The notes below the pieces were generated by a model. The model saw only the letters and a program-made list of their open reading frames with translations, was not told the DNA's origin and ran no database searches. A stretch of 64,000 bases of DNA, from assembly GCF_026571515.1 (NCBI RefSeq), contig NW_026859070.1:124001-188000 (forward strand), written 5' to 3'. Below, piece after piece: positions 1,327 through 50,510 of the stretch. Positions within the stretch are counted from its first letter, which is position 1. Each line of letters begins with the position of its first letter. Source of the DNA: Ruditapes philippinarum. Lineage: Eukaryota. The position numbers and the translations under genes were made by a program.

Positions 1327-1547
1327 ATTCTTCTGGTCTTTGATAATCTTTTTAATACGCTTTTATCATTGACATGGTCTGCTTGTTTGACCTGGTAGAT
1401 TTGGTATATTTTTTTAAATAGTATACCATTACGTGCCAAATTGAGATATAATTATGTAAAATGTTATCAAATACCGAAAAAAACATGATAAAATAACTTG
1501 TACAAAATCGTGAGATATTGTAATTTATTGCGGTCAAATGCTCTTAC

Positions 1548-19080: not shown

Positions 19081-19149
19081 GATACATGTATATAACTTAC
19101 ATGTATATATTACCCCTTCAGGTTAAGAAGAAACAATCCGAAATCTAAA

Positions 19150-26200: not shown

Positions 26201-28027
26201 TTCAATCTTGGCCTGCACAAAGCACTTTGTTATTTGTCAAATAAGCAAGATTTCATTTCATCACTGTTCATAGTAAAAATGAACTAAAATTCGCTGTTTA
26301 CATATATGCAAGACATAAGACAATAACTCTTATTAATACACTTGTTACTATATATATAGTAACAAAATTGCCTATGATTTCAACTGATTATGAGTGTCAC
26401 GTGACCTATTATGAGTTTGCGGCCCGGGGCTGAGAACTAGTTATCAGCCCGCAGAAAATGTGAACGTGCACAAACTGAAACAATGACGTCATATTTTACG
26501 TCATCAAACAGTTAACTGTAAAAGTGAAAGAAGATTGTCAGCACGAATCGCTTTATTTCTATTATGAGAGCTTAAGCGTCATTAGTACAAACAGATTTTT
26601 GTTACTATTGAAATTTGAAGAAATAATACGACAAATTCATTCCGAAAAAAAAATGAAAATAAAACTTGCTTCTAGATTCTACTGCTTTGAACACACAAAC
26701 AGTAAACGTCTCTGTACAGTACAGAACAGTAGAAGGGTAGACAAGAATTTCAACGAAAGAACTTCAAAGTATTTGTTGGTGTTTTTTTTTGGTTTTTTAA
26801 AAAAAATGCTACTATTAGATCTACCAAGTGTATTAAAGACATTAATACACGTCAGAGTAGGGCCGGAAGGTGATAATCGGCCCTGAATGAATAATGGCCC
26901 TCGGGCTAAAGCCCTCGGTCCATTATTCATTTTGCGGGCCGATTATCACCTTCCGGCCCTCTCCTGCCGTGTATTAACCTCTTAATGTTCCACGATGCGA
27001 TGTTTATGAATATACAAACAGTTTTTGTTCAAATACATGCCTTTGACTACATGTCATTAACTTTGTAAATTGTATATTGTATCAACTTCCTTCAGTGAGT
27101 AAGCCTTTCCTTTTTGTTGGCAAATGAATAGATGTACATATAATTTGTTTTCAAACTAGATTTGATCTAGCGTTTTCATGATATTTTAAATGATATATAT
27201 ATATACACACAATAAAATCATTTTGTTCAACTTTAAACGTCATTTATAGTTACAGAAAAGCTCCTCAGTTTCCATTTCCGGCCGCCTACGATGACTGCCT
27301 AACTGTAACCAATGGTCTTCTGAAACGTACAGCCGATTTCAAAATAAAGGCGGGAAAACTTGTCGTCGCGGGAGATGGTTCCGGCGGAAATTTGGCAGCC
27401 GCCGTGGCTCATGCTACTAAAGGGAAAATACTCATGCAAATTCTTATCAACCCGGCCTTGCAAATCTTTGACTTCGAGACGCCGTCTTATCAAGACAACG
27501 TGAACACACTTCCGGGGTTGTCGTCTGCTTTTAGGAATTCCTATCACTGGTTGTCTTATGCTGGAATTTCCAAAGATTTTTTACAAATGGCGGTTCAGAA
27601 TAACCATATTTCACAAAACAATTTGAATTCTGCCTTTAGTTCTTATCTTGATAGCAAAAAATACTTGCCTAGCTACCATGGTGTAACAAAAAGACAAACC
27701 AAACGAAATAGAAAATCTGCTAATATAATAGTAACGTCTGCTTTTAACGGTATAATTGCTGATCCTCGGATAGCACCAATGATGGCCGTTCATATCAAAG
27801 ATGTTCCGAATGTGTATATGATTACGTCACAATATGACGTATATAGGGACGAGGCCATCATGTATACACACAGGCTGTTTGACGCCGGTGTGAAGGTTAA
27901 ACTTGAACACTACCATGAGGCTTTTCACGGATTTTTCATGTTTTGTGGATATGGGCCAATCGAATTTGAAGTGAGCAAACAGGCGTTAAATACACTTGCT
28001 GATTTCTTGAACAATATGGCACAGTAA
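23240..28027 (+). CDS. AADAC/NCEH1-like (HSL-family alpha/beta hydrolase), ~412 aa, N-terminal membrane anchor; nucleophile elbow GDGSG
   Basis: Exons 23240-23242 (ATG|GTAAGT, the least certain exon), 24201-24353, 24854-24970, 25441-25564 (YFHGGGW), 26066-26129 and 27250-28027 (DYRKAPQFPFPAAYDDC, AGDGSGGNLA, YDVYRDE, FHGF). Total 1239 nt, open frame. Confidence 0.9.
23640..23874. mobile_element. Palindromic MITE, Sola-like, 235 bp
   Basis: GAGCCG...CGGCTC termini, 4-bp TSD ATTT, nearly fully self-complementary. Confidence 0.9.
26330..26984. mobile_element. Non-autonomous hairpin-containing element (possibly Crypton-like) in an esterase intron
   Basis: ~135-bp palindrome at 26842-26977, and alternating TTAATACAC / GTGTATTAA motifs at ~26333, 26828, 26842 and 26969. 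Confidence 0.5.
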
Positions 28028-28630
28028 ATAGTAACGTAATTAATTACATCACGAAATATGACGTCAATGACCATACAAGACGAAATTCATTTTTAACAAA
28101 AATAATTTAGACTATAAAGGTCCAAGAATCAAATAATAACATTAAAACTTGTTTGTTTTTCCTTCTTTGTCTGTTTAGAAAGGTAGTTGGTAATTTGAGC
28201 CACTCGAATCTTCTTACTGGAACTGAGCATTAATAGTGCTATATAAAGATACGTGGTCGTGGCACCAGTGGGGCTCGAACCAACAATCCTGGGTTGTGAG
28301 GAAGGCACTTACTTACAAAACTGCCGACCCATCTGTTCTAGAATCTCACCATTTTGAACATAAACTTCTTAATTTCTAAGAGCATGAATAGTGATTTAGG
28401 CCTGCTCGGGTTCCGTACTCATTGTGTGTTAACGGAACATTAGGTTTTTAACACTTAACCTTCTTTGTTCAGAATGTAAAATGGATAAAAATCGTTTAAG
28501 ATAATGAGTGTAAGTAGGGTTAAAAGTAATGAACACGATATAAACGGATAAAGTTCATTAAAAAAATCTATTACATGTACATACGTTTTAAAAACTATTC
28601 ATAACTATCAATTTTTAAATCATAAAGTAT

Positions 28631-31600
28631 CTAATGAGATGAAAATTCGTTTTTCTGAGCTAATCTTGCCGTGACCAGTATTTGGTCTCCATCTAAAAAC
28701 GCGTGATTCAAGAGATCACGTGCCGTTCCTCTGTTGCGTGCATCAACTACGAGACACGTGTCTATAAAAGATTTCAGTCCATCTGATAGTTTGTTATATT
28801 TCTTTATAGTTGGTCTACCATTTCTTTTTATAAGTTTCATAGCACGTGTTCCTTCCTCATGTATATATGGTGGTTCTCCGTCAATCATTTCTATAAGTGT
28901 TATACCATAGCTCCATATATCTATTTTATAATCATACGGTCTCCTGAAAAAAAAGAATGGTTACAGTGTTAGCAATATGGCAAATGTTTGAAAATTCTAT
29001 AACAAAAATAAATGCTTAGATTTACACAGAATTTTATTTAACAATACTTATACATTAGACATATATTTAACCTGTCGCATAAACACGTAGTTTTGGCTTG
29101 CCAAACGATGAATTAGATTCTAAAAATATCTTTTTATTACTTTTCTGATACTGTTATACTTATATAGTTCATACATTAGCATAAACTTAAAAGAATTTAA
29201 AGGAAAATGTTTGAAAAGTTTGCCCAAAAGTATTTTAAAAATATTTTATCAATGTCATGTAGTTACATGCCAAGTGAATTTATTTAAGTGTAAGAAAGAA
29301 ATGGAAGACTGTATATAAAATGTATTTCATACATACCTTGCCACCACTTCCGGTGCCATAAAGCACGGTGAGCCAACCAGTTCGTTCTTCTTGGCATTTT
29401 TATCATGAATGTAGCTGGTACCAAAATCCGTTATCTTTACTCTCCCATATATATCAACTAACACATTGCTGCTTTTGATATCTCTATGAACTATGTTCTC
29501 TTTATGGAGATAGTCCAAACCTTTCACACATTGACTAGATATGAAACAAATATGTCCTTCTTCTAACGCTACATTTCTTATAATCTTCTTTAGCGAACTA
29601 CCATTCACGTATTCCATGACAAGCCAGAATTTCTTTACAGCTTCAACATAAATCGCATCTAGAGCGGTGACAACATTATCATGGTAGATCTTCTTCATTA
29701 TGGTCACCTCGTTTGCCAACACATTAAATGGCTGTTTTTTAACCTCTAATATCTTGATGGCAACCATACAACCGTTCTGTTTCGTTTTGGCTAGAATCAC
29801 GTGACCAAAAGTTCTGCAAATATAGTATAATGTGAAAAGCTGAATACATTGCGAATTAAGAAGATTTGTTTTAAAGATTTTTGGACACGGGTATCAAATA
29901 TGAATGTACAATTGTCGTGGTAGCTATAACTCAGACTTTAGATATGCGCGTTAAACCATGACACCCATTGATGTTGATACATTATAAAGTTTTGACATTG
30001 ATACATTGGTTTATAACAACAGTAGGATTTTGATAGTAATATACTGTATGATAACAACAGATAAATATATGACCTCGACATTGATGTCACACCAATAGAC
30101 AAATAATAAGTTTATAATATTGATACATCACAACATCAGTAAAGTGTACATGTATGTCCTTGACATTGATCCGTCCAACTAACAAACTATTTGTCCTTCA
30201 CATTGAAGCATCACATTAACAGACAAACTACATACTGATAGATCAAGCAAACGTCCTTGACATTGGTACGTCTCCCCAACATACAAAAAATAGTTAAAAA
30301 CAAACATACTTACACTCATAGATAAATTGTGAACATACATGTAGATATAAAGGTGATACTTACCCTGAGTCTATTAACTTTATTGGAGAATATTTTCTTT
30401 TGGGATCATCGCCACTTGACAGATTTCCTAACAAAGTTTAACAAATAATGCAACATTACAGACGAGAAAAATAATGTGACATAGAGAACGAGGAAACATA
30501 TTCACTAACGAACAACATGGTATAAAGTCATAATGTTTGGGAATATTTGATTGATCATTTAGAGCTTTAATGTAAAATGTTTAGCTTATATTGATCACAA
30601 TAATTACGAGCATTGTGTTCGTTTATCAAGCCTTGTATTTTATATGCACCAAAATGATTAAAATGTATTTTTAACCCATGAACCAATAAACTTGTCCATT
30701 ATTTAGGACAAAAGCATTTACTTGTACACGGTGCCTATACCAATACCAAAAAACTAAAAGTACTAAAACCAATACAAAAGACGGTCCAGGTTTTATATTT
30801 TTTCATAACTTTTTAAATATATTATTATTATATACTTATGAATGAACTATTGATGAAATATAATGCGTATTTTCATTTTTCGTATTTTCACAGTGAAATT
30901 TTTTTTTCACTGCTGTTAAACATATTTTCCGTATTTTCACTGGTGTCTTGCTGGACTACTTTCTTCTAATTTCTGCCAGTACACAATGTTTAAGGGAAGG
31001 TTTTTTCTATTAATACAGGATTTATTTTCATCGAGTGGTATGAAAATAAATATTTCGTGAGTGGCGGTAGCCCCTGAAATATGATAATTTTCATACCACA
31101 AGAATATCCTCTTTTTATCTTGTATGGAATAAAATGTAGAGCCTGCTCATTCTAGTGTGGAACCATGAAAAGAATGATTCTTGATCTTCTGATTGTTTGA
31201 GCACTCGCGGTTTTACTTTATGTAAAATACTGTTTTTTTTTACCCTTAAACTTTCTATGAATGTTTTATTTACTAGAAAGGGTGGGTTCAACACTTTACC
31301 CGATTCTATTAAAACAATGGAAGAAAATAAAATTTGAAGCGTCTATTGTACACCATGCATATCATAAAATGTTATGTGGTGTAGGCACAGTGATTCATTA
31401 TTTTTACGGCAAATTTCAAATATGTGCTGACTGGATAGCCAAATTTGCTTAGGAAAATTTACATTCTGAGAAAATGTTTCGTTTACTTACTTAACATTTT
31501 GTGATACAACATGTCGACAGCTCTCGGCTGAACACGTGACTTTGTCTTCGACACATCCTGCAACAAAAAGATAATGTTCAATTAAATGTTTTGAAATCGT

Positions 31601-34600
31601 TTGTGAAAGAGATATTTAGAAATTACTTACACAAGAAAATACATGTATAAAGATTAATAACTTCTTTCAGTAAAGGTTATTTTAATGGCCTATATAAACT
31701 GTTATATGCAATATAACCCTCATTTTGCAGCTTGGGTTATATATACAAGCAGCCGTTTATATTTGGCCATATAACCTGTCAACAATTTTAATAAATAGTA
31801 AAATAGTTAATGGTTTTAACAACGAAAGTTTCAATTCAGAACAAAATGATATTATCTGAGATATATCACATGCAGCCGTTTATATTGGGCCATATAACCT
31901 GTCAACAATTTTAATAAATAGTAAAATAATTAATGGTTTTAACAACGAAAGTTTCAGTTCAGAACAAATTGATATTATCTGAGATATATCACATGCAGCC
32001 GTTTATATTGGGCCATATAACCTGTCAACAATTTTAATTAATAGTAAAATAGTTAATGGTTTTTACAACGAAAGTTTCAATTCATAACATAACATAACAT
32101 AACATAACATACATGTATAGTTTATTAGCATAATATGTGTTTACATACATACATAGCCATTTACAATGCAAGAAGTACAGACATGAAATTTTTAACAGAA
32201 GAACATGATCAAACAATTCAAAAAGGATAAGTATATTGATAACATGTACATTCAGTCAATTTTCAAAAAACAATACAAATTTTCAACTGTGACTAGATCA
32301 GTAAATAAAAAATAACTATAAAAATTGCGTTTCTTTGATCATTATATAGTATGATAGTATAAAATACTAAAGAAATCGCCAGTGTATTTAAACATTGTTA
32401 TTGGTATTTCGTAGTTGAAAGGCAGAATATATGAATTTAGCAACATTGATAATACATTTTGAGGATTCGCATGATAGAAGGGTTATGAACTTTTGGATTG
32501 ATGGCCATCTACAATAATATTGTTTAAAGTATTTGGTTCTTAGTTCACTATATTTCGGGCATACTAATAAAAAATGATACTCATTTTCAATCATGCGCAT
32601 ATTACATTCTTGGCAAATTCGAAGGCGTCGATCGACATTTGTGTATCTTCCAGTTTCGATAGCTAGTTGATGAGAAGACAATCTAAATTTAGATAATGCT
32701 ATTTGATATTTTCTTTCATTTATACATTCTAGATATTTTTCAAAATTAAAAGTATGTTTAAATAGACAGTATGAAGATAATCTGTTAGAGTTGTTGATAT
32801 TAGTGTACCAAGATTGTTTATAAATATCAAGGATTCTCTGTTTGATAAAATAATAAGGGATGACTATATTAGTTTGATTAATCCATATATCAGCCAATCC
32901 TACTTCCTCTAGAATATGTTTTATCTGATAAGCCCAATTCATGTTGTTATATGTAATATTTTGATTTGCATCATTTGACAACATAAAATAAACCTTTCTT
33001 ATTAATACATTGGTAGATGTCAATATTTTAATCCAGTATTTAATCATCAATAGTTTTCTATATATTTTCATAGGTACTCTTCCAACCTCACCATATAGCC
33101 CTTCTAGATTTGTAGATTTTTTTACACCAAGCACCTTACGTAAAAATTTACAATGTATCAACTCAATAGCTTTTGATTCGTGATTTCCCCATATTGGTGC
33201 ATTATAATTTAGGACTGATCCAACTAGGCTATCGAACAGATTACATTTATCTTTATTGGTTAATTCTATTTGGTTGAAAATAATGAACAAGTTGTGTAAA
33301 GCATATGATGCGTTGTAGCAACGCTATATGTCGCAACGCCGCTATATGTCGCAACTAACGCTAAATGTCGCAACGCTGACGCTATATGTCGCAATCAACG
33401 CTATATGTCGCAATCGCCTACCGCTAAATGTCGCAACGTTGCCGCTATATGTCGCACAAAAATCGATTGCCGCTAAATGTCGCAACCCCTTGACGCTAAA
33501 TGTCGCACTTGGTGGAAAAGTCAAATCAGATCAGGCACATTGACCGATTGGTTTCCATTTATATTTGTAACAAAACTACCTTTCACAAATACATATATCG
33601 CATTAACAGAGGTTATATCGGTAACAAAATGAAATTAAATATAAGCCGCGTGAATTCATATCGTTACTGCGTGATGTGTCTTATTACTATTTAATACAGT
33701 GGAACGGACAACAAACATCAAAATAGTTGGTAGCGGGACACTTGAAGGTCAAAGGTTAAATTCGTGTCCGCTCCATAACTTTTTCATTTATTATGCTAAT
33801 TTGATCAAACTTCACACAAATGTTCACCGGCATTAGATATTGTGTCCCATGCAGCATCAAGGTCACACTTGAAGGTCAAATTCTTGTCCGCTCCATAACT
33901 TTATCATTTATTATGCGAATTTGAACAAATTTCAAACAACTTGTATATAACCCAGGCATTCCGCACCGTCGGTCTATTTGAAGCATTGTCCTTAGCACCA
34001 CAACAGTTTTCTGACCAATGAAAAGCACACACGTCACAATAACATCAACTAGGTATAACAGAAACGTGATACTTTAATATAATATATATAATTATACAAG
34101 CGTAAATGGCTGCGAAACAATTGTTTGATGGAAAGGCATGAAAAACTGTTATTAAAAAGGCAGCTGTTGAGTTTTACCAAATTGCTTAACAGCATGTTAA
34201 AAGCAAAAAAATGTATTACTATGTTACACCACGAAGTTATAAATTACAATCTGATCTTAACATTTTACTGGGTTAAAGAGGAATCGTTACTATAGTATAA
34301 TTTTAATAGTAAAATATTCCTTATCACACGGTTTATTTGATTGTAACGGGTCTGGTCAAAAACTTTAATGCGTTAAATATAAAAAAATATACATTTCTTC
34401 ATAACGAACTTGTTTTCTTGTTTTAAGGCAAAAAAATTAGATGGATAGTTTCAGATATACAATTTTGTATTATGAGAATGTAACACATTTTGCGTGTTTG
34501 TCCAATACAAAACAGTGCCCCTTTAGATACAGACAGGTCAGGTAACAAGATTCTATGCGTCATCATTTCCTGAGCTTTATTGTCTAGTTCCATGATATTT

Positions 34601-37600
34601 AGTCTCGATTACCTACCCCCTACACAAGAAAATCTGAAATCGTCCAGTCCATTGGATGTTTACGGACATGAGAAAATACTTTCTTTTCATTTGACAAAAA
34701 TGAAAAATAAAAATGTTTTGCAACAATGCGAGAAATTTAAAATGTGCCCCAAAGTGTTAAAATTATGTACGAGACATTTTTTATTTACTTGTGTTTTTAT
34801 TGGGAACACGCAAAATAAATCGTGTAGTGCCGCAGTAAATCATGTGTGTTATATAAAATCATATAAGACTTGGATGCTTCGCAGCCGAATAAAGGCACTG
34901 TGACGCCGCATAAAAGTCCTGTCGCATAAACGGGTTCAAAGTCATTGATGCGGTGATTTTCCTCGCATAATAGTAGTGAACACGTTTATGCGGCTAGGCG
35001 CAATGCATAAAGCGAAAATTGCTTTTATGCGGCGCAGCAGTGCCTTTTTGCCACATAAAGAGGTTACACCTGAGTTTATATATTTTCAAGCCAAACAAAG
35101 TAAAGTATTAATATTTCAACAACTTTCGATAATAATTTATCCCTTAAACAGGGATTCCATTGTAAACTACTGTAGAACGGTTCTAACACATTAAAGTAAA
35201 TGAATCTTATTTTATAATTTTCTTTCATATACAAAATCGAGTTACTGGTATGCCTAGATGCCTCTAAAACCTGCGCGCCTGTTCCGACAAATGCGGCGGC
35301 AAATTTTCACGATTTAGCGAAATCAATTTCACGACATAATAAAAATTTAGTACACAACCGAGCAAACTTGCGTGGCCTGTCATTAACAATTATCTCTTAA
35401 AAATGTTTAAAATGACGTTACGAATGATCATAAATGTCCGTCAGTCCAATAAATGGTAAAAAAATATGTCATACGCCGATTCAATTTTGATTGACACGTT
35501 GCACATTTACATAACCTTGGCAGGAGATAAATGTTTTTTTTTATATTTATATTATTTTTTAACGTCAAAAAACACCCCGTCACTAAAACAAAAAAGTCTT
35601 AAACATTTTAATTGTTTTTATGCGGTGACAGGGTACCTTTGTGCCGCATAAAAAGTATTTCTTTAATGCGGAGAAAATCACCGCATAAACGACTTTGAAC
35701 CAGTTTATGCGGCAAGGCCGCAATGCGGCGGCACAAGGCACCGCAAGAAATAAAATACACGTTACTGTTATACAGTTAATAATGTGGTAAGATACCATGA
35801 TTACAAAGTCAAATCAAAAAAATAAACTCAAGTTTGTGCAAATCATTTTAATCCATATTTTCCAACAAGAACAAGTATATTGAAATAATTGATACTGTAA
35901 TGATTAAGTGAACAATAATATTCATAAACGACTAGTGTAACCGTAAAACTACATAAAACATTATATGGCACTAGAGTTTTAGTGCAGTTTGTGTGTTATC
36001 ATTTTAAGAATAGTAAATTATAAACTTCATAAAAATTATGTACAAATCTCTCATTTGTAATCAAAGAAATAAAACAAAACTTTTGGAAATCAAACTTTCA
36101 AATATAAACGAAGTACAATGACGAAAACAAATTCTTAGTACTAATTGTGATATTTAAAAAAAAAATGAAATCCAATGTTATATCAGTTTCAGCTTTCACC
36201 TATCTCATGTATTTTAAAACATTATTATATGACCTACAAACGTTCATTGCCTTCTATACCATATATCTTCAATTTCAAACCAACATATGGCATCAACGCA
36301 AAGACGAAGGTGTAACCAGGCATTTGCCCAACGAGATTCTCTAATTATACGTCTTATTTCGAGAATTAGGCCAGTAAATCTTCCAAAATTCATAAGCAGT
36401 CTCCTTACACTAACAATATTCGGTGCATCACTCATAATATCCGGAGAAATGTAAATGCGCGGCATTTGTGCATCACACAGACTAACAACATTGCTTAGAT
36501 GGCACCGATTAAGGACGTATCTTGGTGCAGGGTTGCCATTTAAACAGTATCGTATAATTTTAACCTGAACAAGAAGTGGTAAATCATTAAAAATAAATGA
36601 ATTCCGAAGGTTTCTATGCCCTCGACGTCGAATATTTTCCACAAGGGAACGTAAAGTAAGCAAATCATTATTTACAGGCAGTTTACTATTATCAGTGTAA
36701 TTTAGTCCATTATCTTTGTGTATATTTCCTAAGTTCAGCATTATCATCGTGATGTTGGAAATGTTTGATTATAATACAGTATATTATGGAACTCCATAAA
36801 CGACAGCCAACTGTTGACTGCTTACTGCGCGCTGCTTACACTATTGCTTACTGCCTACCGTGCGTTGCGCGTATTTATTTGCAATGTATCAGCCAAAGGA
36901 TTCCGACCGAGTTATCAACGATTTATTGCACAGACACGCATAATTATTTAGGTTTTGGTAAATTTAATGCTATAAGCAGTGAACAATAAGCAGTAAGCCG
37001 TCAGCAGTTGACAGTAGGCAATTGACAGTAAGCAGTTGACAGTAAGCAGTAGGCAGTTAACAGTAGGCAGTAGTTACTGTATGTGTATTTAAATTCGCGG
37101 AAGCAAATTTTCGCGGAAAGGTCCACTTTGGGGGTCTATACAAATATTCGCGCTAAATTGAATTCGCGGAGGTGACTGCCAAAAATCATAAATTCGCGTA
37201 GACCACTCAGGTTAAAAAAAGAAAAATTACTGTAATCATCGTGGGAGTTCACAGTTATTTTTAATACCAGGTGTCAAACAATACTCTTTTGAACAGAAAA
37301 AAGACGTTGTCTAGCGGACAGATTATAGAAAACAAAAGAATGCCCGTTAACGTGCATAATTTTTCACAGTTTGCGTCATAAACGTCTTAACATCTGATCA
37401 GAGCATGTTTTGGTTTTTCTGAACAAACAATTAAAAAAACATAAACATAAACGATTTTAAATGATCAATAACTTGGAAAACAAAACACAATTACACAGTA
37501 AAGATTTAAATAAAAAGTGTGAAAGCATATCACATACTGATATACATTGAAGTAGACAGTAAGCAGTCAACAGTTGGCTGTCGTTTATGGAATTCCATGT

Positions 37601-40600
37601 TTTAGTCCATGCATTTATTAATTTATCAGTGAATTCCTTTAAATGTTGTTCTAAGAATATATATGTACCTGTAAACTATTAAAGTAAATTAGGAAAAATA
37701 CCAAGGGTCCAACCGGGTTTCGAACCACAGACCTCTTGGTCCGTAGACGGACACCTCAACCACGTCGTTAAAGGGTTAATCTAACAGCAAGGCTGATGGA
37801 AGTGGCCTATATACCTACAACCACTACACTCCTCCCCTCTTTACTTTTCAGAGCTAGCCAGCTCTCCTGAATGACACTCCCTGCTTACCGCATGAGTCTG
37901 TCAAACACTTCTGACACTATTAAAGTAAATTAGGAGGCCGAAAAATACCAAGGGTCCAACCGGGTTTTGAACAACAGACCTCTTGGTCCGTAGGCGGACA
38001 CCTCAACCACATCGCTAAAGGGTTTACCCAACAACAAGGCTGTTGAAAGTGGCCTATATACCACTGCACTATATTGTGTTTGACCTTCAGAACGGCAACT
38101 ATTTCGGTAACTGAATAATTTTATGACCATTATAGTTGTAATAGGTCGTCCATTTTTATTTTAATGCTATTAGCAGTGAATGATAAGTAGTAAGCCGTAA
38201 GCAGTTGACAGTAAGCAGTTGACAGTAAGCAGTAGGCAGTCAACATTTGGCAATTCCATAGTATATTGATTCATTAATGTTCCCAAAGAAATATTGAGAT
38301 AAATATAAAAAGTTATGAAAGTATAACAATTCTGTCATAAACCTAAATCAATACACCGCATAGTTACGAATATCGATCAACAGATCAATTGGGTATTATT
38401 TAATACTTACATGTAGTAAAGCCTATCTAGTCAGATTATGAACAGGTAAAATTAAGATATAGTTCCCCCTTAGCATTAACAAGCGGTTTGCTCAGTTATG
38501 TCAAATAATAAAACAAATATACATGTATATCCAAATGTTTTTGTTGATGCATTTTGTGAGAAAGACATCCTCAAAGAGAAAGTTTGATCTCACACCTGGT
38601 CCGTGGTTGAGAACCAAATCCATCCCTTTTATCAAAAACCGTTTCTATGGCCAAACAAGGTTTTTGCCATAGACCGCGAAATACAACTTTTGTTTGCTTA
38701 CTAGGATATGTTTTCATGTGTAAATGGTATAAACTTTAAATGTTTTAACATTGAGTTCCATCTGTTACTTTCCTACCAAGTGCGACATTTAGCGTCAAGG
38801 GGTTGCGACATTTAGCGGCAATCGATTTTTGTGCGACATATAGCGGCAACGTTGCGACATTTAGCGGTAGGCGATTGCGACATATAGCGTTGATTACGAC
38901 ATATAGCGTCAGCGTTGCGACATTTAGCGTTAGTTGCGACATATAGCGGCGTTGCGACATATAGCGTTGCTACATGCGTACTGTGCTATCCTGCTTTGCG
39001 TTCTGTACCAAGAGCCATTTTTAAATAGGTGTGTTCCTAAGTATTTGAAGGATTTAACAACCTCTAATTGCTGTTCACATAAAATAAAATTATGTTGTGT
39101 ATGACGGCCCCTTTCGAAAATCATTACTTTTGTTTTGTCGGTGTTTATTTTTAGGCCCCAAGTATCACAATAAGCTTCTAGTTTGCTTAGTAAATCTTGA
39201 AGTGCATTTTGAGTGTTTGCAAAAAGTACCGAATCATCGGCAAAATTCAGAACAAAATGATATTATCTGAGATATATCACAAGCAGCCGTTTATATTGGG
39301 CCATTTAACCTGTCAACAATTTTAATTAATAGTAAAATAGTTAATGGTTTTAACAACGAAAGTTTCAATTCAGAACAAAATGATATTATCTGAGATATAT
39401 CACATGCAGCCGTTTATATTGGGCCATATAACCTGTCAACAATTTTAATTAATAGTAAAATAGTTAATGGTTTTAACAACGAAAGTTTCAATTCAGAACA
39501 AAATGATATTATCTGAGATATATCACAAGCAGCCGTTTATATTGGGCCATATAACCTGTCAACAATTTTAATTAATAGTAAATTAATTAATGGTTTTAAC
39601 AACGAAAGTTTCAATTCAGAACAAAATGATATTATCTGAGATATATCACAAGCAGCCGTTTATATTGGGCCATATAACCTGTCAAAAATTTTAATTAATA
39701 GTAAAATAATTAATGGTTTTTACAACGAAAGTTTCAATTCAGAACAAAATGATATTATCTGAGATATATCACAGAATTATTATTCTATTAGAAATTATCA
39801 TGAAAGTAAGGATCATACCTTGTCTTGTATTTGAGAAGTTTTCGTCTTCGTCTCGTTATCCAACTCCACTGAATGACTAAAATTAAGAAAATCATATTTT
39901 ATCACTTTGTATTAAAAAAAATCATGTTTATTTCTTCATAACATATGTTCGTATAACCCCACCCCCCTAAAAAAATAACGAAATAAAAAATCAGTTTTTA
40001 ACATGCATTCTACATATAGTTCTAAACAAGTCGAAAAGTTTTCACATAGCAACACCTTTTTTGTGTAAACGCTACATACATGTACATGTTATTACTGTTA
40101 TCTTTTAATATATTTTCATCAAAATTTTGATCATATTAAAGGATAATGCTGAAAGTGTTTTGGCATCTCTTTGGCAATTTAAAACGCGACTATCTAAACA
40201 GCTGTGCATTAAATACATGTATATATTTGTTTTATTTATTGAAATCTGGAATTTTATTTTTTCTGCACTTTACCTGGTATGTAAAGTTGATCGACGGTAA
40301 ACACTGAGAATTCCGAACATCGAATCATCTTCATCATTGAAGTATAAGGCAGGACATTCTGAAAGTAAGATTTTCAATTTAACTTTTAAAGCTATAACAT
40401 ACAATTTTAGATAGGTATCCATCTCATTTGTGTTGTAATATCACGCGTGAAAATTCCAAAATGTTATTACAATTATATAAACATGCATGTTAACATACTA
40501 TGACTAATATATATACATGTATAATAAGTAAATGGTGCGAGTTAACATTATGATGTCTTCCATCCACCCGAAAACTACCTATTACATTCTTATCCTTAAT

Positions 40601-40645
40601 AATAATAAGAAAAAATTATTTACCTATTTTACCGCCTCTGTCCAT
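28631..40645 (-). CDS. PAK/STE20-like kinase copy A, ~358 aa, no CRIB domain seen
   Basis: Exons 40633-40645, 40274-40358, 39819-39876, 31491-31557, 30364-30427 (DPKRKY), 29337-29813 ([22 protein letters not shown]) and 28631-28943 ([16 protein letters not shown]). Total 1077 nt. The first exon is less certain. Confidence 0.88.
31746..32084. repeat. ~122-bp tandem array, left part (~2.8 units)
   Basis: Unit GCAGCCGTTTATATTGGGCCATATAACCTGTCAAC...GATATTATCTGAGATATATCAC; the array continues at 39244. Confidence 0.9.
32388..33290 (-). pseudogene. C-terminal part of LINE ORF2 (post-RT region and zinc knuckle)
   Basis: 300-aa ORF with [14 protein letters not shown] and [13 protein letters not shown] motifs typical of LINE ORF2. 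Confidence 0.85.
36244..36747 (-). CDS. Uncharacterised 167-aa ORF with an F-box-like motif, inside the TIR element
   Basis: Uninterrupted ORF in very AT-rich [20 protein letters not shown] resembles the F-box consensus, and the C-terminus is Trp-rich. Confidence 0.5.
   Translation of the reverse strand: MIMLNLGNIHKDNGLNYTDNSKLPVNNDLLTLRSLVENIRRRGHRNLRNSFIFNDLPLLVQVKIIRYCLNGNPAPRYVLNRCHLSNVVSLCDAQMPRIYISPDIMSDAPNIVSVRRLLMNFGRFTGLILEIRRIIRESRWANAWLHLRLCVDAICWFEIEDIWYRRQ
36785..38260. mobile_element. IS3EU-type non-autonomous element, 1476 bp
   Basis: TATGGAA...TTCCATA termini, perfect 6-bp TSD GTATAT (36779-36784 and 38261-38266), CAGTAAG/CTTACTG subterminal repeats, and an extra internal TIR copy at 37557-37598. 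Confidence 0.8.
37675..38062 (-). repeat. Direct duplicate of a tRNA-derived (SINE-head-like) segment
   Basis: ~140-bp units at 37675-37815 and 37916-38062, containing a B-box-like GGTTCGAAACC on the minus strand. Confidence 0.55.
39244..39773. repeat. ~122-bp tandem array, right part (~4.3 units)
   Basis: Same unit as 31746-32084. Confidence 0.9.
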
Positions 40646-42703
40646 ATTCCTAGATTACAAGAATACCACTCTAAACATTTCTGATTTTAGTTGTTCGTCC
40701 ATTAAACGTATTAATGTGTGCGGTTTAAAATCGGCTGATGCCTATCGCCTTGACGGTGTTTCTAACGAATGACGCTAACGTGACATCATAAACGCCAGAC
40801 GTCATAAACGCTTAATGGTTTCGTACTCAAACTAATTCGTTATTACATCTCATTTTGGGTTTAACAAAACAAACCTTAAACCAGGGACACATTACTTTAA
40901 CAATTGTCACAAAATAATAATATTTAAAAGCCTATTTTTGGTGAACTTTTATAGTTATAAAAAAGTCGCTCATTGCATGGCCAATTACTTGAACAATCTT
41001 TTTCACTTCTGTTTATTTATTTTTTTAATTTTTTTTTTTTTGCAATTAGTACAGTTTTAGTGATTAAGTATTAAATTTAGCCAAAATACTATTTGTTTAC
41101 ATTTTCCTACCTCTATGACAGATAATTTCATTATAAGAACTACTTTCCATTATTCCAACGTTATAACACCAATGTTTGCTCTTTCTAAAGTAGTAAAAAC
41201 TTAGTTTCTGAGACATAATATGCCTTTAAACCATTCTTTGGTTTATCTATTATTATTTTTTTAGCTGTAAAATACGACTCAGTTATAAAAATTGAACTTG
41301 TCTGACCATTATATAATTGGTTGCGATTACAGCTCAAGAAATTCCACGTGACTTAAAAGAGGAATTCTCGAATCAGATAAAATTTAATGACTGTTTATTA
41401 TTATAAACTATTAGAATTTAGGACTCCTACTCGATCAGTTGTAGTAAGTATAATATATCATTGACGATTCTACTAGTATAGGAAGATATAAAAGCATTGT
41501 CCTATACACCAAGTATGATTTAATTCATATTGTCACCATAATAATTTAATAAGATTAAAAATTACTTGCTGGAAATCGAAATCTTAAACCACCTTATTGT
41601 ATTGCTTCATGTATATACTACTATTAAATTGTCTACTACAAAAGATATCAATATATAATGCATATTTTATTCTTTTTGAAAGACCCTGCTGGTCTATCAT
41701 CGGTTTGGAAGGAAAAACAAAGTTGAAACATAAGTATGCTAAGTGGTATTTTTGGTAAATATTGCATTTTTTTACGACCTTTGCCGATATACAGGTTTGT
41801 AACAATACAAAACTGTACTATCTTCATATCTAAATTGGACCTGAAATAGCTGATTTTATAATCAAATAACCTATATCAATATGTAGACGGCAAATAAATG
41901 CCTTTACTGCTTCCGATCAATGCATTATTACGATTTTGTCCACCGAGAAAGAGCGATCGACATTTATAGTTCATTTATGGATTTTTTTAAAACTATATAT
42001 CAAATGTCCAATGAAAGAAAGAAAACGAACTACTCTATAAATATTTTTTTACATATTTGATAAACGAAAATATGTTTCATGTCTTGCGATTTAATCCCCC
42101 GCTACTTCCGGTCACTGTACAAATTTTGAGCCTACATGTATATACAAACATATATAATTATATTTTAACTTTAACCTTTCTTGCGAAAACAGGAAGTAGA
42201 GACGTGTATACACTGTTTTTGATATATACATGTTAACTATATACAAATATTTAAATACTTCATCAATACCGAGAAAAACTCGTTTAGTCTTCTTCAATTA
42301 CCGCTTAAGTTTAAATAGGGGTGCTCATTATTTCTACCCCATTTTACTTTGCATCGACCTTGTACTGGCAAACGCACAAAAATAAATAGACTGAAATAAT
42401 TATAAAGTAAATTATAATGTAGAGCCATGCATTCATAATGAATGCGATTTTGAAGTTAGCTTTCAGTGCATTGTACCTTAATATAGAATTAGTAAGTATT
42501 TTTCAGTAACGACGCAGATTGTGTATATGAAATTACCAGCTCGTTATAATCAGTGAAAATTGAATACACTGTACACGTTTTTTTTTCTGTAGGCGTCCTG
42601 TTTTATAAAAAATAATCGCTCGCAGTTTGGAATATGTTCTGTTTATATCAAATATGTGATATTTTAGAAATACTTTAAAATGTGTGTATTAACATTAATA
42701 TAT

Positions 42704-42938
42704 GAGCCGCGTCATGACAAAACTAACATAGTGCGTTTGCGACCGGCATGGATCCAGACCAGCCTGCGTATCCGCGCAGTCTGATCAGGATCCATGCTGT
42801 TCGCTTACAAACTCTATAACAAGTAGAATAACTGATAGCGAACAGCATGGATTCTGATCAGACTGCGCGGATGCGCAGGCTGGTCTGGATCCGTGCTGGT
42901 CGAAAACCCATTATGTTGGTTTTGTCGTGACGCGGCTC
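42704..42938. mobile_element. Palindromic MITE, Sola-like, 235 bp
   Basis: GAGCCG...CGGCTC termini and TSD ATAT. It is absent from the paralogous region near 50130. Confidence 0.9.
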
Positions 42939-43289
42939 ATATATTTAATCAGGCGATTTGAGTAGATAAATTTACCTCAAATGTGCGATAGCACATGGAA
43001 TATATGTCTTAAAAGTGTAACAATCTGCATTCGTAAGTATGTATTATTATTATTAACCATAATCAATTTGTATACTATGTATTATCGCTATTTTACCCAT
43101 CGATGATTTTTTTTGAAAAGAATCGTTTTCTATTTCATAGAATAGGATTTGACCCCCACCTCCGTCGGTCCCGATTAACCGGCATTACGGAAAAAACAGA
43201 CAATAACTTTATCGTCTGGCCGGACTTGATTTAAATCTACTGCTATCAAAATTGAACTATTAATCATGCCAAATTATTCAATGTGACGT

Positions 43290-43430
43290 ATCTGCTAATA
43301 TAATAGTAACGTCTGCTTTTAACGGTATAGTTGCTGATCCTCGGATAGCACCAATGATGGCCGTTCATATCAAAGATGTTCCAACAGGCGTTAAATACAC
43401 TTGTTGATTTCATGAACAATATGGCACAGT
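43290..43430 (+). pseudogene. Duplicated 3' fragment of the AADAC-like gene with a 170-bp internal deletion
   Basis: Matches 27715-27807 joined directly to 27978 onward. Confidence 0.9.
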
Positions 43431-44036
43431 TAATAGTAACGTATTTAATTACATCACTAAATATGACGTCAACGACCATACAAAAGACGAAATTCATTTT
43501 TAACAAAAATAATTTAGACTGTAGAGATCTAAGAACCAAACAATAACATTAAAACTTGTTTGTTTTTCCTTCTTTGTCTGTTTAGAAAGGTAGTTGGTAA
43601 TTTGAGCCACTCGAATCTTCTTACTGGAACTGAGCATTAATAGTGCTATATGAAGATGCGTGGTCGTGGCACCATTGGGGCTCGAACCAACAATCCTGGG
43701 TTGTGAGGAAGGCACTTACTTACAAAACTGCCTACCCATCTGTTCTAGATTCTCACCATTTTGAACATAAACTTCTTAATTTCTAAGAGCATGAATAGTG
43801 ATTTAGGCCTGCTCGGAGTCCGTACTCAATGTGTGTTAACCTAACATTAGGTTTCTAACACTTAACCTACTTTGTTCAGAATGTAAAATGGATAAAAATC
43901 ATTTCAGATAATGAGTGTTGGTAGGGTTAAAAGTCATAAACACAATAACGAATAAAGTACACTAAATTTTTTTCTATTACATGTACATACGTTTTAAAAA
44001 ATATTCATAACTATCAATTTTTAAATCATAAAGTAT

Positions 44037-47000
44037 CTAATGAGATGACAATTCACTTTTCTGAGATAATCTTGCCGTGACCAGTATTTGGTCACCATTT
44101 AAAAACGCGTGATTCAGAAGATCACTCGCCGTACCTCTGTAGCGTGCATCAACTACGAGACACGTGTCTATAAAAGATTTTAGTTCATTTGATAATTTGT
44201 TGTATTTCTTTATAGTTGGTCTACCATTTGTTTTTACAAGTTTTATAGCACGTGTTGCTTCCTCGTGTATATATGGTGGATCTCCGTCAATCATTTCTAT
44301 TAGGGTTATACCATAACTCCATATATCTATCTTATAATCATACGGTTTCCTGAAATAACGAGAACGGTAACAGTGTTAGAAATATGGCAAATGTTTGAAA
44401 ATTCTGTAACAGAACTAAATGCTTATGTTTTAACAAAGTTTTATTTATAATACTTATACATTGTACAAGATTTACCTTTAGCAAAGACGTTTTCATTGGA
44501 TAATCGTGACGTTTATGTATATACACTAATGCTGTTAGTTTTTTTTAAATAATTTTCTTTTCTTTTTTTCAAGTATAGTATTTGTGCTTTATCATATTTT
44601 TTTTAACTTATGAAGACTTTCGACAGGTTATATGACCGTGTGTATACTCGGGTTATATAAATTTACAGCCGTTAATATATATAAACCGTCTAAAATCTTT
44701 ATACACGGAGTTTTGACTTGCTAAACGGTGAATGAGATTCTAAAAATATCTTTTAATTTCTTTTCTAATACTGTTTTCCTTTAATAGTATATAAAGAATC
44801 ATAAAATAAAAAGTATATAAAGAAAAAGTTTTAAAAGTTTGCCTGAAAGTGTTTTAAAATATTTTATCAATGTCATGTAGTTACTTGTCAAGTGAATTAA
44901 TTTAAGCATTATAAATGAAAACGGAATACTTTATAAAGATATGTTTTATATATACCTAGCCACCACTTCCGGTGCCATATAGCACGGTGAGCCAACAATT
45001 TCGTTCTTCTTGGCATTTTTATCATATATGTAGCTGGTACCAAAATCCGTTATCTTTACTCTCCCATATATATCCACCAACACATTGCTGCTTTTTATAT
45101 CTCTATGAACTATGCTTTCTTTATGAAGATAGTCCAAACCTTTCACACATTGACTAGATATGAAACATATATGTCCTTCTTCTAACGCTACATTTCTTAC
45201 AATCTTCTTTAGCGAACACCCATTCACGTATTCCATGACAAGCCAGAATTTCTTTACAGCTTCCACATAAATCGCATCTAAAGCGGTGACAACATTATCA
45301 TGGTAGATCTTCTTCATTATGGTCACCTCGTTAGCCAACACAGTAAATGGTTGTTTTTTAACCTCTAATATCTTGATGGCAACCATACAACCGTTCTGCT
45401 TCGTTTTGGCTAGAATCACGTGACCGAAAGTTCTGCAAAATAGAGTATAATGTGAAACGTTGAATACATTGCAAAGAAAAGAATATTCATTTTTAAGATT
45501 TATATTCTTTATTTGAATACTGATATCAAATATGAATGCACATTTGTCACTAAGAAATGTGCGCAAAACCTTTTTGAACTACACTTGACGGCGAACCATG
45601 ACACCAACCGCACTTACAGACAAATGTTTAAGTTTTTGTCATTGAAACATTAATGCATCCCAACACCTCTTGACATTGATACATGATAACAACAGAAGAA
45701 TATATGGCCTTGACATTGATATGTCACAAAAATGGCAAAATAATAAGTTTATGATATAAATACATTATAACATCAGGAAAATGTACATGTACATATGTAT
45801 GTCCTTGACATTGATCCGTCCAACTCACAAACTATATCCTTGACATTGAAACATCACACCTATAGACATATTATACATCCTAAAAGCTGATGATCAAACA
45901 ACGTCCTTGACAATAGTAAGGCCACCCAATTGACAAAAAGATTTAAAAACAAGCATACGCTCATAAATAAAATGTGAACATAGAAATATGGTGAGACTTA
46001 CCCCGAGTCTATAAGCTTTATTGGAGAATATTTTCTTTTGGGATCATCGCCGCTTGACAGATTTCCTAAAATAGTATAACAAATAATGCAACATTATAGA
46101 ACAAGAAAAATAAAACGTGACTTAGAGACCGAGAAAATTTTAAAATAACGAACAAGATAGTATAACCTATCAAAGTTTTGAAAAATTTGAGTTTTAAGGC
46201 AAAATATCTAGTTTATTATGATCACAATAATAACGAGCATAATAATTATCGCCCAAAAAGCTAAGTTTTTAATATGCACCAAATTGTTTTAATTTTATTT
46301 CTAACCCTTAACCCGCTAAATATCCTAAATGGAAGGACAAGACCATTAATTTACACGGTACCTGTACCGCGTGACTTTTTGTGATCTGCGTGGGGCAAAA
46401 AAAACCAATACGAGAGACGGTTCAGGTTTTATTTTCTGTTATAACTTTTTTAATATGTCATTATTTTATATTGAATAAAATGCATAGCTTAAAAAGTTTC
46501 CTGGAAAAAAATTGTAAAGTGAAACCGCGTGAATATCTGCATGATTGTTCAAATACGCGGCAAAAACATCCTATGTATGTATGTTACCCACTAGACTGAT
46601 AGGGCTCAACACTTTATCCGATTAAAATAACCAAATATAAAAAAATGGAAGAAATTAAAATCTTGAGCGTCTGTTATTACGAAAATCATAAATGCCACGT
46701 GATGTAGGCATCGTAATTCATTATTTTACGGCAAATTTAAAACATGACCAAATTTACTAAGGAAAATTTACATATCATTTACTTACTTAACATTTTGTGA
46801 TATAACATGTCGATAGCTCTTGGCTGATCACGTGACTTTGACTTCCTTTGAGTAGGTGTAGATATATCCTGAAACATAAAAGATAACGTTAAAATAACAT
46901 TTTAAAATCACTTGTGTAGAAGATATTTATAAATTTCATGTTTAACAAAAGAAAAGATAAATACATTTATATATATTATCAAACATTGAATAAGATAAAG

Positions 47001-47832
47001 TAGTTTCAATTCAGAACAAAATGGTACTTTTAATTATTTATCTATTAGAAACTGATCATGAAAATAAAGGATCATACCTTGTCTTGTATTTGAGAAGTTG
47101 TCGTCTTCGTCTCGTTATCCAACTCTGCTGAATGACTAAAATTAAGAAAATCATATTTTATCATTTTGAATTAAACAAAATCATGTTTAAATTTCTTCAC
47201 AACATGTTTTCGTTTAAAACAAAACCCGACCATAACATTCATTCTACATAATTATTATAATTCTTAACAAGTCGGAAGGTTTTCACATCGCCACATATTT
47301 ATTATGTACACGCTATCTTGGTATACATTTTCATCAAAATTTTGATCATATTAAAGGATAAAAAGCTGAAAAGGTTTTGGCATGTCTTTGGCAATTTAAA
47401 AGCAGCTGTGCGTAAAATATATATTTGTTTTATTTGTTGAAATCTGGAATTATATTTTTTTCTGCACTTTACCTGGTATGTAAAGTTGATCGACGGTAAA
47501 CACTGAGAATTCCGAACATCGAATCATCTTCATCATTGTCGTATAAGGCCGGTAATTCTGAAAATAGATTTTCAGTTTTACTTTTTAAGCTATATCATAC
47601 AATATTAGTTAGGTAGTCATTTCATTTGTGTTTGAATATCACACTTGAAAAATCAAAAAGATCATTATAATTTTATATACATGAATGTTAACTTACAATG
47701 AATAATATATACATGTATAATAAGTAAATGCTGCGAGTTAACATTATGTTGTCTTCCATCCACCCGAAATCTACCTATATCATTATTTTCCTTATTAATA
47801 AAAACAATATTTCATTTACCGCCTCTGTCCAT
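44037..47832 (-). CDS. PAK/STE20-like kinase copy B, ~363 aa, no CRIB domain seen
   Basis: Exons 47820-47832, 47473-47557, 47078-47135, 46787-46868 (15 nt longer than in A), 46002-46065, 44956-45432 and 44037-44349. Total 1092 nt, open frame, same motifs as copy A. Confidence 0.88.
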
Positions 47833-50510
47833 ATTCCTAGATTACAAGAATATCAACATAAACATTTCTGATTCTAGTTCTTCGTCCATTAAACGTATTA
47901 TTTTAGTTGTTTAAATGTATGCGGTTTAATATCGGCTGATGCCTACCGCGTTGACGCTGTTTCTAACGAATGACGCTACGGTTAGTGACATCATAAACGC
48001 CCTGCGTCATATACGTCTTATTGGTTTCGTACTCAAACTACAATGTAATTCGTTATTACATCCCATCGGGTTTTAACAAAACAAACCTTAGAACACAGAC
48101 ACATTACCTTAACATGTGACACAAAATTAATTTAACTTTAAAAATCATTATGCCTAGAAAATGTTGTTTTTTTTTAATTTCACAAAAGCTTTATCATTTT
48201 TGGTGTATTTTAATAGTTTTAAAACAATTTGTTCATTGGCCAATTACTTGAACAATCTAACAATCTTTTTCACTTCTGTTTTTTTTTTGGCAATTAGTAC
48301 AATTATAGTGAATTTAGTTTTAATTTAGTCAAAATTCTTTTTGTTTACATTTTCCTACCTCTATGACAGATAATTTTATTGTTAGATCTTCTTAACCCAG
48401 ACATGAAGCATCTAAAATGCTCTTCAACCATTATTCCAACGTTATAACACCAATTTTTGCTCTTTCTAATGTAGAATTTTTTTTAAAGTTTCTGAGGCCG
48501 AATGTGCCTTTAACCATCCTTTCATAATTAATTATTATGCTGTGAAAACCTTGAACTTTTCTGATCACCATGAAATTGTAGTCGTTCCACGTTAACAGAG
48601 GAATTCTTAAATCAGACGAAAGAAGTAGTATAAAACAAATTGATGTTTATTATTATAAAGTATTTGAATATTGTGAGTAATATAAGACTCTTACTCGATC
48701 AGTGGTATTAAGTATAATATATAATTGACGATTCTACTAGTACAGGAAGAAATAAAAGCATTGTCCTGTATACCAAGTATGATTTAATTCATATTGTCAC
48801 CTAATTTGCCGTCTATATATATTGATATAGGTTATTTGATTATAAAAACAGCTATTTAAGGTCCAATTTAGATATAAAGATAGCACAGTAATGTATTGTT
48901 ACAAACCTGTTTATCGGCCAAGGTCGTCAAAAAAAATGCAATATTTACCAAAATACCACTTAGCATACTTATGTTTCAACTTGTCTTTCTTTCTATTTGA
49001 TTTTAAGAACACGATGATAGACCAGGGTCTTTCAAATAGAATAAAAATATGCATTTGATGTTGATATCTTTAGTATTAGACAGTTTAATCGTAGTATATA
49101 CATTAAGCAATTAAATAAATGGTTTAAGATTTCGATTACCAGCAAGTAATTTTTAATCTTATTAAATTATTATATGCCTTTACTGCTTCCGATCAATGCA
49201 TTATTACGATTTTGTCCACCGAGAAAGAGCGATCGACATTTAAAGTTCATATGTGGAACTTTTTAAAACTATATATCAAATATCCAATGAAAGAAAGAAA
49301 ACGAACTTCTCTATAAATAACATTACACATTCGATAAACGAAAATACGTTTCATGTCACTGTACTTTTTTTTAGCCTACATGAATATACAAACATGTATA
49401 ATTATATAATTTAACTTTAACCTTTCTTGCGAAAACAGGAAGTAGAGACGTGTATACACTGTTTTTGATGTATACATGTTAACTATATACAAATATTTAA
49501 ATACTTCATCACTAACGAGAAAAACTTAGTCTTCTCCAATTACCACTTAAGTTTAAATAGGTTTGCCAATTATTTCTACCCCATTTTACTTTGCATCGAC
49601 CTTGTACTGGCAAACGCACAAAAATAAATAGGCTGAAATAATTATAAAGTAAACTATAATGTAGAGCCATGCATTCATAATGAATGTAATTTTGAATTTA
49701 ACCTTCGGTGCATTGTACCTTGATTTAGAATTGGTAAGTGTTTTTCATTAACGACGCAGATGGGGTGTATGAAATTACCCGCTTGTTAATCAGTGAAAAT
49801 TGAATACATTGTACACGTTTTTTTTCTATGGGCGTCTTGTTAAAAAAAAAAAATAATCCTCGTAGTTTGGAATATGTTCCGTTTATATCAAATATGTAAT
49901 ATTTTAAAAGATACTTTAACATGTGTGTGTTGAACAGTGAAAGAAGTACAAAAAAAATGCAGATTTATTGCATTTAAGACGGTGATAAATGTTGTGGAAA
50001 GTAAAATAAAGTCACTTCTTTTCTATTCTATTCAGTTTTGTCGAAAGTTTTAAGGGTATTTATTAAAAAAAAACCGATTTATAAATAGATTAGACTGTGT
50101 TACTGATCAATTACTGATACATTATTATATATATAATCAGGCGGAGTAGATAAAATCACCTCGAATATGCGATAGCTAGCACATGGAATATATGTTTTAT
50201 TAATTAAAAGTGTAACGCTCGCATTCGTAAGTATGTATTATTATAATTAACCGTAATAAATTTTTATACTATATATTATCGTCATTTTACCCATCGCTGA
50301 TTTTTTAAAAGAATCGTTTTCTATTTCATAGATTTGACCCTCACCTCGCATTACGGATAAAAACGGACAATAACCCTATCGGACTGGCTTTAAATCTACT
50401 GGCATCAAAATTAAACTATTTATCATGCCAAATTATCCAATGTGACGTATCAAAGATTTAACGCTCAAAATGACTTTACTTCAATAAAATTTACTTCAAT
50501 ACTTTTTTTC

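Follow-up and report, generated by a model that had tools for sequence, protein, structure and literature searches.

The window analysed here is a 64,000-nucleotide stretch of the genome of the Manila clam, Ruditapes philippinarum (NCBI RefSeq assembly GCF_026571515.1, contig NW_026859070.1, positions 124,001 to 188,000 of the forward strand), and all coordinates below are counted from its first letter unless a contig is named. Between positions 28631 and 47832 it carries two duplicated genes, copies A and B, which encode short PAK-type kinases (mini-PAKs) that lack a CRIB domain and bear a Glu where PAK1 has its activation-loop phosphosite, T423.

Structure of the two genes

Both copies are intact genes on the minus strand, with seven exons each, GT-AG introns and open frames. 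The product of copy A is 358 aa long in the base model; its first donor probably lies 9 nt further on, as suggested by the paralogue protein P0019, which starts MDRGGKIE, and this would give 361 aa. The product of copy B is 363 aa long.

In copy A, exon 1 (40624..40645) has its ATG at 40645 and its donor after either 40624, the paralogue-like site, or 40633. Exon 2 (40274..40358) carries a conserved N-terminal motif, DDS[IM]FGIL[NS]VYRRS[ST]LH; exon 3 (39819..39876) encodes a linker, which exon 4 (31491..31557) continues up to a pre-kinase helix. Exon 5 (30364..30427), with its 64 nt of the same size as in the parent gene described below, includes the Asp codon of the Gly loop (30369-30371). 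Exon 6 (29337..29813) encodes the kinase core, in which the counterparts of PAK1 K308, T423 and Y429 are Phe (29726-29728), Glu (29381-29383) and Cys (29363-29365) respectively, and exon 7 (28631..28943) encodes the C-lobe and the stop. Copy B, also on the minus strand, follows the same plan: exon 1 at 47820..47832 (ATG at 47832), exon 2 with the motif at 47473..47557, exons 3 and 4 at 47078..47135 and 46787..46868, exon 5 at 46002..46065 (64 nt; Gly-loop Asp codon 46007-46009), the kinase core at 44956..45432 (Phe 45345-45347, Glu 45000-45002, Cys 44982-44984), and the C-lobe with the stop at 44037..44349. An NCBI model labelled PAK 3-like (P0001, R. philippinarum) matches copy B and includes its exons 3 and 4, with another 5' exon and no final exon; that 5' exon and the early stop were discarded, and the seven-exon model common to A and B was preferred.

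Residues of the kinase domain

A PAK-type kinase domain is present, its leading PDB sequence matches being PAK1 and PAK3, and its placement in the tree agrees. The best match of both copies is 1YHV, the T423E mutant of PAK1, whose Glu423 aligns with the Glu of the activation loop (15 residues in copy A; KKNEIVGSPCYMAPE in copy B). An earlier note on this DNA, made from the letters alone, had described Glu at T423 in both loops, an Asp for the first Gly of the Gly loop, and some 85-90 aa, without CRIB, ahead of the kinase domain. All of this was borne out: the Gly loop reads IDSGTFGHV in A and B, split after IDSG by a phase-2 intron, and the preceding stretch measures 86-91 aa. Three further features, namely the parent gene, the changed specificity residues and the conserved N-terminal motif, were absent from that note.

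The VAIK Lys, the alphaC Glu, HRD, DFG and APE are intact in A, in B and in the related proteins P0017, P0018 and P0025 of another venerid clam (DCG in one isoform); since all catalytic residues are kept, A and B are not pseudokinases by motif. The Lys, the alphaC Glu, the HRD Asp, the Asn and the DFG Asp are retained even across lineages in which synonymous divergence (dS) is saturated, and in A and B the HRD Arg is retained alongside the acidic loop residue. For P0025 the predicted structure is a confident PAK kinase fold, whose structure matches are PAKs, although a model of this kind is no evidence of activity.

In each of the 11 clam loci readable there, the site of K308, the Lys of the alphaC phosphate clamp, holds a Phe with a deletion of one residue (Tyr in P0017). 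With an acidic residue at the phosphosite as well, phosphosite and clamp have thus been lost together, a joint loss also reported, in the consulted part of one study, across AGC kinases (PMC6969211). At the Y429 site both copies carry Cys, and the family as a whole varies among C, R, H and S. Finally, all three specificity determinants mapped for STE20 kinases (KxxN, DFG+1 and the beta3-alphaC loop) are altered: in A, B and the paralogues the Ser-Asp of KxxN has become KSSN or KSNN (P0025 keeps the Asp), and the DFG+1 Phe has become Thr.

Absence of CRIB and the upstream region

No match to the PBD model (PF00786) was found in the five family proteins scanned, the control P0040 scoring 2.7e-22, and none of the eight PBD matches of the genome lies on the contig of A and B or on any other family contig. 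Because of this absence, A and B are best described as PAK-derived rather than as regular PAKs. The 3.4 kb between the start of copy A and the stop of copy B contain no CRIB-like open frame either, and in both copies an in-frame TAA stands 12 nt ahead of the ATG.

Conservation of the 200 bp upstream extends to the most distant paralogue, and this block looks like a promoter with a first exon. Seven of the 11 upstream regions compared contain two to five sites resembling the cAMP response element (CRE-like, TGACG), where about 0.3 would be expected. The patterns counted were picked after viewing the alignment; two of its 11 rows represent one and the same place, and the upstream sequence of the four that lack sites is unrelated. 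In copy A the putatively promoter-like cluster lies at 40770..40804, 130-160 bp upstream of the ATG, and in copy B at 47952..48009.

Family size, selection and transcripts

The large kinase exon has at least 13 close matches in the Manila clam genome (53-100% identical). The earlier description of a duplicated pair was therefore right as to the tandem of A and B, but understated the extent of a family that predates their duplication. The hard clam Mercenaria mercenaria has two family genes (P0017/P0018 and P0025), both with E at the T423 site and without CRIB. In the Manila clam every one of the 13 family loci has an acidic residue here (nine E, four D), E and D being swapped between old lineages; among 89 PAK-like loop rows gathered by the searches made here, 81 have T or S, and the eight with E or D are all family members. 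Such regularity argues that the acidic site is not due to chance.

Purifying selection on the pair and on the family is strong. Over the whole coding sequence, A and B give a ratio of non-synonymous to synonymous rates (dN/dS) of 0.23 (dS 0.18; 38 synonymous and 33 non-synonymous differences; p 2e-9), which agrees with the earlier suggestion that both copies are retained; for exon 6, dN/dS is 0.05-0.48 over 33 of the 36 pairs from nine loci, the other three being dS-saturated. On contig C1913 (L031, L085), several ATG exons and partial mini-PAK copies lie in tandem upstream of an intact copy.

The look at transcripts covered contigs of four runs over the region of copy B, from which neither a 5' end nor the strand, level or tissue can be read, and no run listed as containing the sequence is recorded as RNA. 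One contig, probably from an RNA run, skips the intron 44350-44955 and the next upstream intron, the second joint missing the predicted donor by 9 nt; it must stem from a paralogue, since 38 of about 480 letters differ from copy B. Unspliced contigs (runs X1 and X2) cover the last kinase exon and the adjoining intron at 43902-45020, with A-like and B-like letters mixed, and possibly represent a long antisense-overlapping 3' untranslated region of the neighbouring esterase gene, or DNA.

Origin from a Pak3/MAX-2-type gene

A CRIB-bearing gene on contig C9500, modelled as a compact 477-aa PAK, is of the invertebrate Pak3/MAX-2 type, a class described in part of a review (PMC3490964); the label is based on the compact layout and the atypical CRIB, as the tree had no named fly or worm sequence. 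It shares with the mini-PAKs the 64-nt exon, a single exon from the Gly loop to APE+4, the phases of all introns in the kinase part and an insertion of two residues before beta5. The clam PAK1 (C9084) and PAK4 (C10199) genes divide the region from the Gly loop to APE into four or more exons. Unlike the mini-PAKs, this parent has the CRIB, the autoinhibitory helix, Thr at 423, K308, Y429, the DFG+1 Phe and KSDN.

The STE20 phylogeny proposed in the earlier note points the same way. In a 48-row tree the family forms a clade (100/100) nested in a molluscan Pak3-type clade (97/92), and its grouping with PAK1 is rejected by the approximately unbiased test (p 0.0037; 24 rows, quick tree). Exon structure and tree together indicate that the family derives from a CRIB-bearing invertebrate gene of Pak3/MAX-2 type and not from PAK1. 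Its exact sister is uncertain because the stem is long: the tree places there a protein of the slug Arion vulgaris (P0044), which is possibly an intermediate and possibly a long-branch artefact. The start of its CRIB is truncated, and it carries Ser in place of T423 and Cys in place of Y429. One or more further Pak3-type copies occur on contigs C5891 (297399-298447) and C12068 (1-6219) (L045, L079); in one kinase part there the T423 site is Ala, DFG is changed to DFR and KxxN reads KSAN, and a second CRIB exon closely resembles that of the parent, so that the parent lineage itself has been duplicated.

Predicted activity

The reading favoured here, and held to be moderately likely, is that A and B are kinases independent of phosphorylation and of GTPases, with a rewired substrate specificity and an activity predicted from their residues. 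Its parts differ in strength: independence of GTPases is well supported by the absence of CRIB, and catalytic activity is plausible, given the catalytic residues, the Cys at Y429, the joint change at K308 and the precedent of phosphorylase kinase. The mini-PAKs form a subfamily, found in venerid clams, that arose from a Pak3/MAX-2-type gene, lost its CRIB and became acidic at the loop phosphosite throughout. The loop Glu would pair with the HRD Arg in the manner of phosphorylase kinase, whose kinase domain is constitutively active with a natural Glu182, as stated in the consulted part of PMC10978961; the alphaC phosphate clamp, no longer required, could then give way to Phe. Loss of Y429 would take away autoinhibitory or dimer contacts, and Y429C is indeed described, in passages of two papers, as a human PAK1 gain-of-function allele that dimerises less (PMC6821231, PMC10017488). 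Thr at DFG+1 may bring about a preference for Thr, and without the KxxN Asp the preference for Arg at -2 may be weaker, as the STE20 specificity rules published in excerpted sources predict (PMC3898841, PMC6445471). Given these changed determinants, the substrates of the mini-PAKs probably differ from ordinary PAK substrates. The output of the kinases would depend on when and where the genes are expressed, under the control of the conserved CRE-like cluster, and on the N-terminal motif as a targeting signal.

Several points weigh against this reading. The earlier note had taken T423E for the classic activating mutation of PAK1, and this premise is weak: passages of two reviews report PAK1 T423E to be inactive (PMC3485743, PMC3490964), since Glu cannot make the contact of the phosphate with Lys308. 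Of the constitutive, GTPase-independent activity proposed on that premise, the independence stands on the absence of CRIB, while the constitutive activity is not established by T423E. The first Gly of the Gly loop is Asp in seven of the ten clam loci read (three keep Gly), which may hinder ATP binding. APE-2 is Phe or Tyr in A and B, where all STE20 kinases are said, in part of PMC6445471, to carry Trp; according to the same source, a mutation in the KxxN pocket cut the rate of PAK4 on its usual peptide about 1000-fold. The changes are not all family-wide, for P0025 keeps a Lys near the start of alphaC and the KxxN Asp. Only five of the 13 loci (A, B, C1913, C13756 and C4053) are open through both kinase exons, the others having stops, frameshifts or missing parts, and these may be pseudogenes or assembly errors. 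Finally, spliced RNA was seen for a paralogue only, so that expression of A and B themselves is predicted rather than observed.

Taken further, the same points could mean that the proteins are weak kinases or pseudokinases, whose fold is retained as a scaffold or as a heterodimer partner that damps full-length PAKs; the Glu would then do no more than remove a useless phosphosite. This is unlikely, even though it would fit the reported inactivity of PAK1 T423E (passages of PMC3485743 and PMC3490964), the Asp at position 1 of the Gly loop, the loss of K308 and of the KxxN Asp, the replaced APE-2 Trp in A and B, the DCG, DLG or GS-to-VS variants of some copies and the many broken loci. It does not account for catalytic residues kept across dS-saturated lineages, and a disabled phosphosite needs no acidic residue by itself, yet all 13 loci have one.

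The N-terminal motif

The motif of exon 2 is common to the clam copies and to P0025, which are only about 42% identical overall. A hidden Markov model (HMM) of the PAK autoinhibitory region, built from 25 PAK regions, sets the motif in register with the helix that follows the CRIB, at about 2 bits, a score no higher than that of a motif-less control and not significant as a sign of homology to that helix. In the single-chain model the motif has a predicted local distance difference test (pLDDT) score below 50. The ESM Atlas gave no usable match for it.

The motif also closes large, low-complexity proteins on at least nine other contigs (C6800, C9111, C2128, C1192, C12706, C10677, C14127, C9227 and C10027; loci L055-L066, L073, L077 and L078). 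These low-complexity open reading frames (ORFs) are 100-580 aa long, many of them in tandem, and end in an acidic stretch followed by FGIL[ST][VI]YxxSG[LI]H, which occurs twice in C10027. In the non-kinase families examined, tblastn over some 8-10 kb on the downstream side of the motif revealed no kinase exon, and Pfam returned nothing for the motif-bearing non-kinase proteins, whose sole database relatives are two clam proteins. As the motif ends proteins that have no kinase exons nearby, a targeting role is at least as likely for it as autoinhibition. On C1192, 6.8 kb downstream of a motif ORF, two exons (L073:8475-8599 and 9337-9409) without a Pfam match have the look of an EF-hand protein of the calcineurin-B-like kind; their phase is unfit for a direct join.

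These observations bear on a second alternative, namely that the kinases are active without being constitutive, the motif being left over from the autoinhibitory helix or standing in for it, with RRx[ST]L at its end as a switch phosphorylated by PKA or by the kinase itself, so that control would have shifted from GTPase to phosphorylation. RRx[ST]L is a basophilic kinase consensus, the motif is retained between copies as distant as those of P0025 and the Manila clam, and the HMM places it in the expected register. The probability of such a switch is nonetheless low: the HMM score does not exceed the control, the intron phases flanking the motif are unlike those of the helix exon of the parent, the pLDDT of the motif is low, and the unrelated motif-ending proteins mostly lack an RRxS site, which suggests a targeting motif. 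Very improbable is the remaining alternative, an unseen upstream CRIB exon that would make A and B ordinary GTPase-regulated PAKs: the NCBI paralogue model P0012 does join a short exon to the TAG ahead of the ATG, which the earlier note had considered as an acceptor, and the contigs checked reveal no transcript 5' end, but the TAG is not kept in all copies, the P0012 exon was rejected as non-conserved, unrelated to the sequence of the other copies and CRIB-free, PF00786 is missing from every family contig and a CRIB-like frame from the 3.4-kb gap before the stop of B, the promoter-like block is kept as far as the most distant paralogue, and the Mercenaria models have no CRIB too.

Tandem duplication and neighbouring genes

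Unit A of the tandem spans 27715-43292 and unit B 43290-50451. The junction (43290..43430, plus strand) is an internally deleted fragment of the last exon of the neighbouring esterase gene, with 3 bp of microhomology, and copies the parts of that exon at 27715-27807 and from 27978 onward. Identity between A and B is 91-95% in the five exons compared and 61-85% in five introns. As a side question, the two might be diverged haplotypes set in tandem by the assembler, or the product of recent unequal crossing-over. The junction fragment is 99% identical to its source while the introns have diverged to 61-85%, and towards the 3' end letters of the A type and of the B type are blended in contigs of other individuals. 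Such an origin is improbable in view of the dS of 0.18, the strongly diverged introns and a clean junction with microhomology and internal deletion; if true, it would leave the finding on the family unchanged.

The intron of copy A at 31558..39818 is enlarged by a 123-bp satellite, fragments of long interspersed nuclear elements (LINEs) and a 5.7-kb element (33314-38974) with 208-bp near-perfect inverted ends, which sits in a LINE fragment inside the satellite. Elsewhere in the window, the Abhydrolase_3 esterase gene whose last exon contains the duplication breakpoint lies on the plus strand at 24021-28027 and is presumably arylacetamide deacetylase-like. A single plus-strand frame of 760 aa (19096-21378) ends in a C-terminal kinase domain with LND in place of HRD in its catalytic loop, and duplicated exons on the minus strand (1467-3949 and 12126-16082), which have the appearance of a gene pair, are taken to be zinc carboxypeptidase-like.

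Comparison with known systems and significance

All PAKs harbour an N-terminal CRIB/PBD, according to a passage of PMC3490964; A and B have neither this domain nor T or S at T423, nor the KxxN Ser-Asp with the DFG+1 Phe. Group I PAKs (PAK1/2/3) are their best PDB matches in sequence and fold, with Glu falling on Glu423 of 1YHV and Cys on Y429. The differences are the missing CRIB, the split exon of the clam PAK1 gene, the rejected grouping with PAK1 and the reported inactivity of engineered T423E.

The bird PAK3-like genes (PAK3L) offer a parallel. They are described, in part of PMC13477013, as a lineage-specific expansion without 5' regulatory exons, arranged in tandem arrays, expressed mainly in testis and under positive selection. 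The clam family resembles them in being a tandem, lineage-specific PAK expansion from which the 5' regulatory exons have gone. It differs in its separate position in the tree (where the bird row is partial and long-branched), in its purifying selection, and in its acidic loop residue, which the bird sequence examined lacks, its P+1 loop being degenerate. By this analogy, a germ-line role of the mini-PAKs may be guessed at.

Phosphorylase kinase gamma belongs to another kinase group, CAMK, and is controlled by C-terminal calmodulin binding, so that the analogy is mechanistic only. It is likewise an RD kinase with a natural Glu for the loop phospho-Thr (PMC10978961, in part). A CRIB-less PAK expansion and a natural loop Glu are thus each known; in the open-access literature, supplements lying outside the search, no description was found of the clam family, of a PAK with a naturally acidic T423 site or of such an expansion combined with a loop Glu.

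A bolder proposal, possible but doubtful, is that T423E/D, a beta3-alphaC loop rebuilt by the change of K308 to Phe and a deletion, and Y429C together give full activity without phosphate or GTPase, and that a mobile motif has replaced the CRIB, likely in a germ-line pathway. If true, the clam genes would represent a natural solution to the problem that defeats engineered T423E, and a short motif common to several unrelated expanded clam families would have become a targeting or control module. If instead the proteins are inactive, they would form a new family of PAK-derived pseudokinases.

To sum up, the mini-PAKs are a second, independent case among PAKs, after bird PAK3L, of loss of GTPase control coupled with expansion. 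The engineered T423E mutant is in wide use as 'active PAK1' and yet is reported inactive; the clam genes carry the same change at T423, kept by selection since before the split of Ruditapes and Mercenaria, combine it with a rebuilt alphaC loop and the substitution known from a human gain-of-function allele, and thereby provide a ready set of second sites for testing what makes an activation-loop mimic work.

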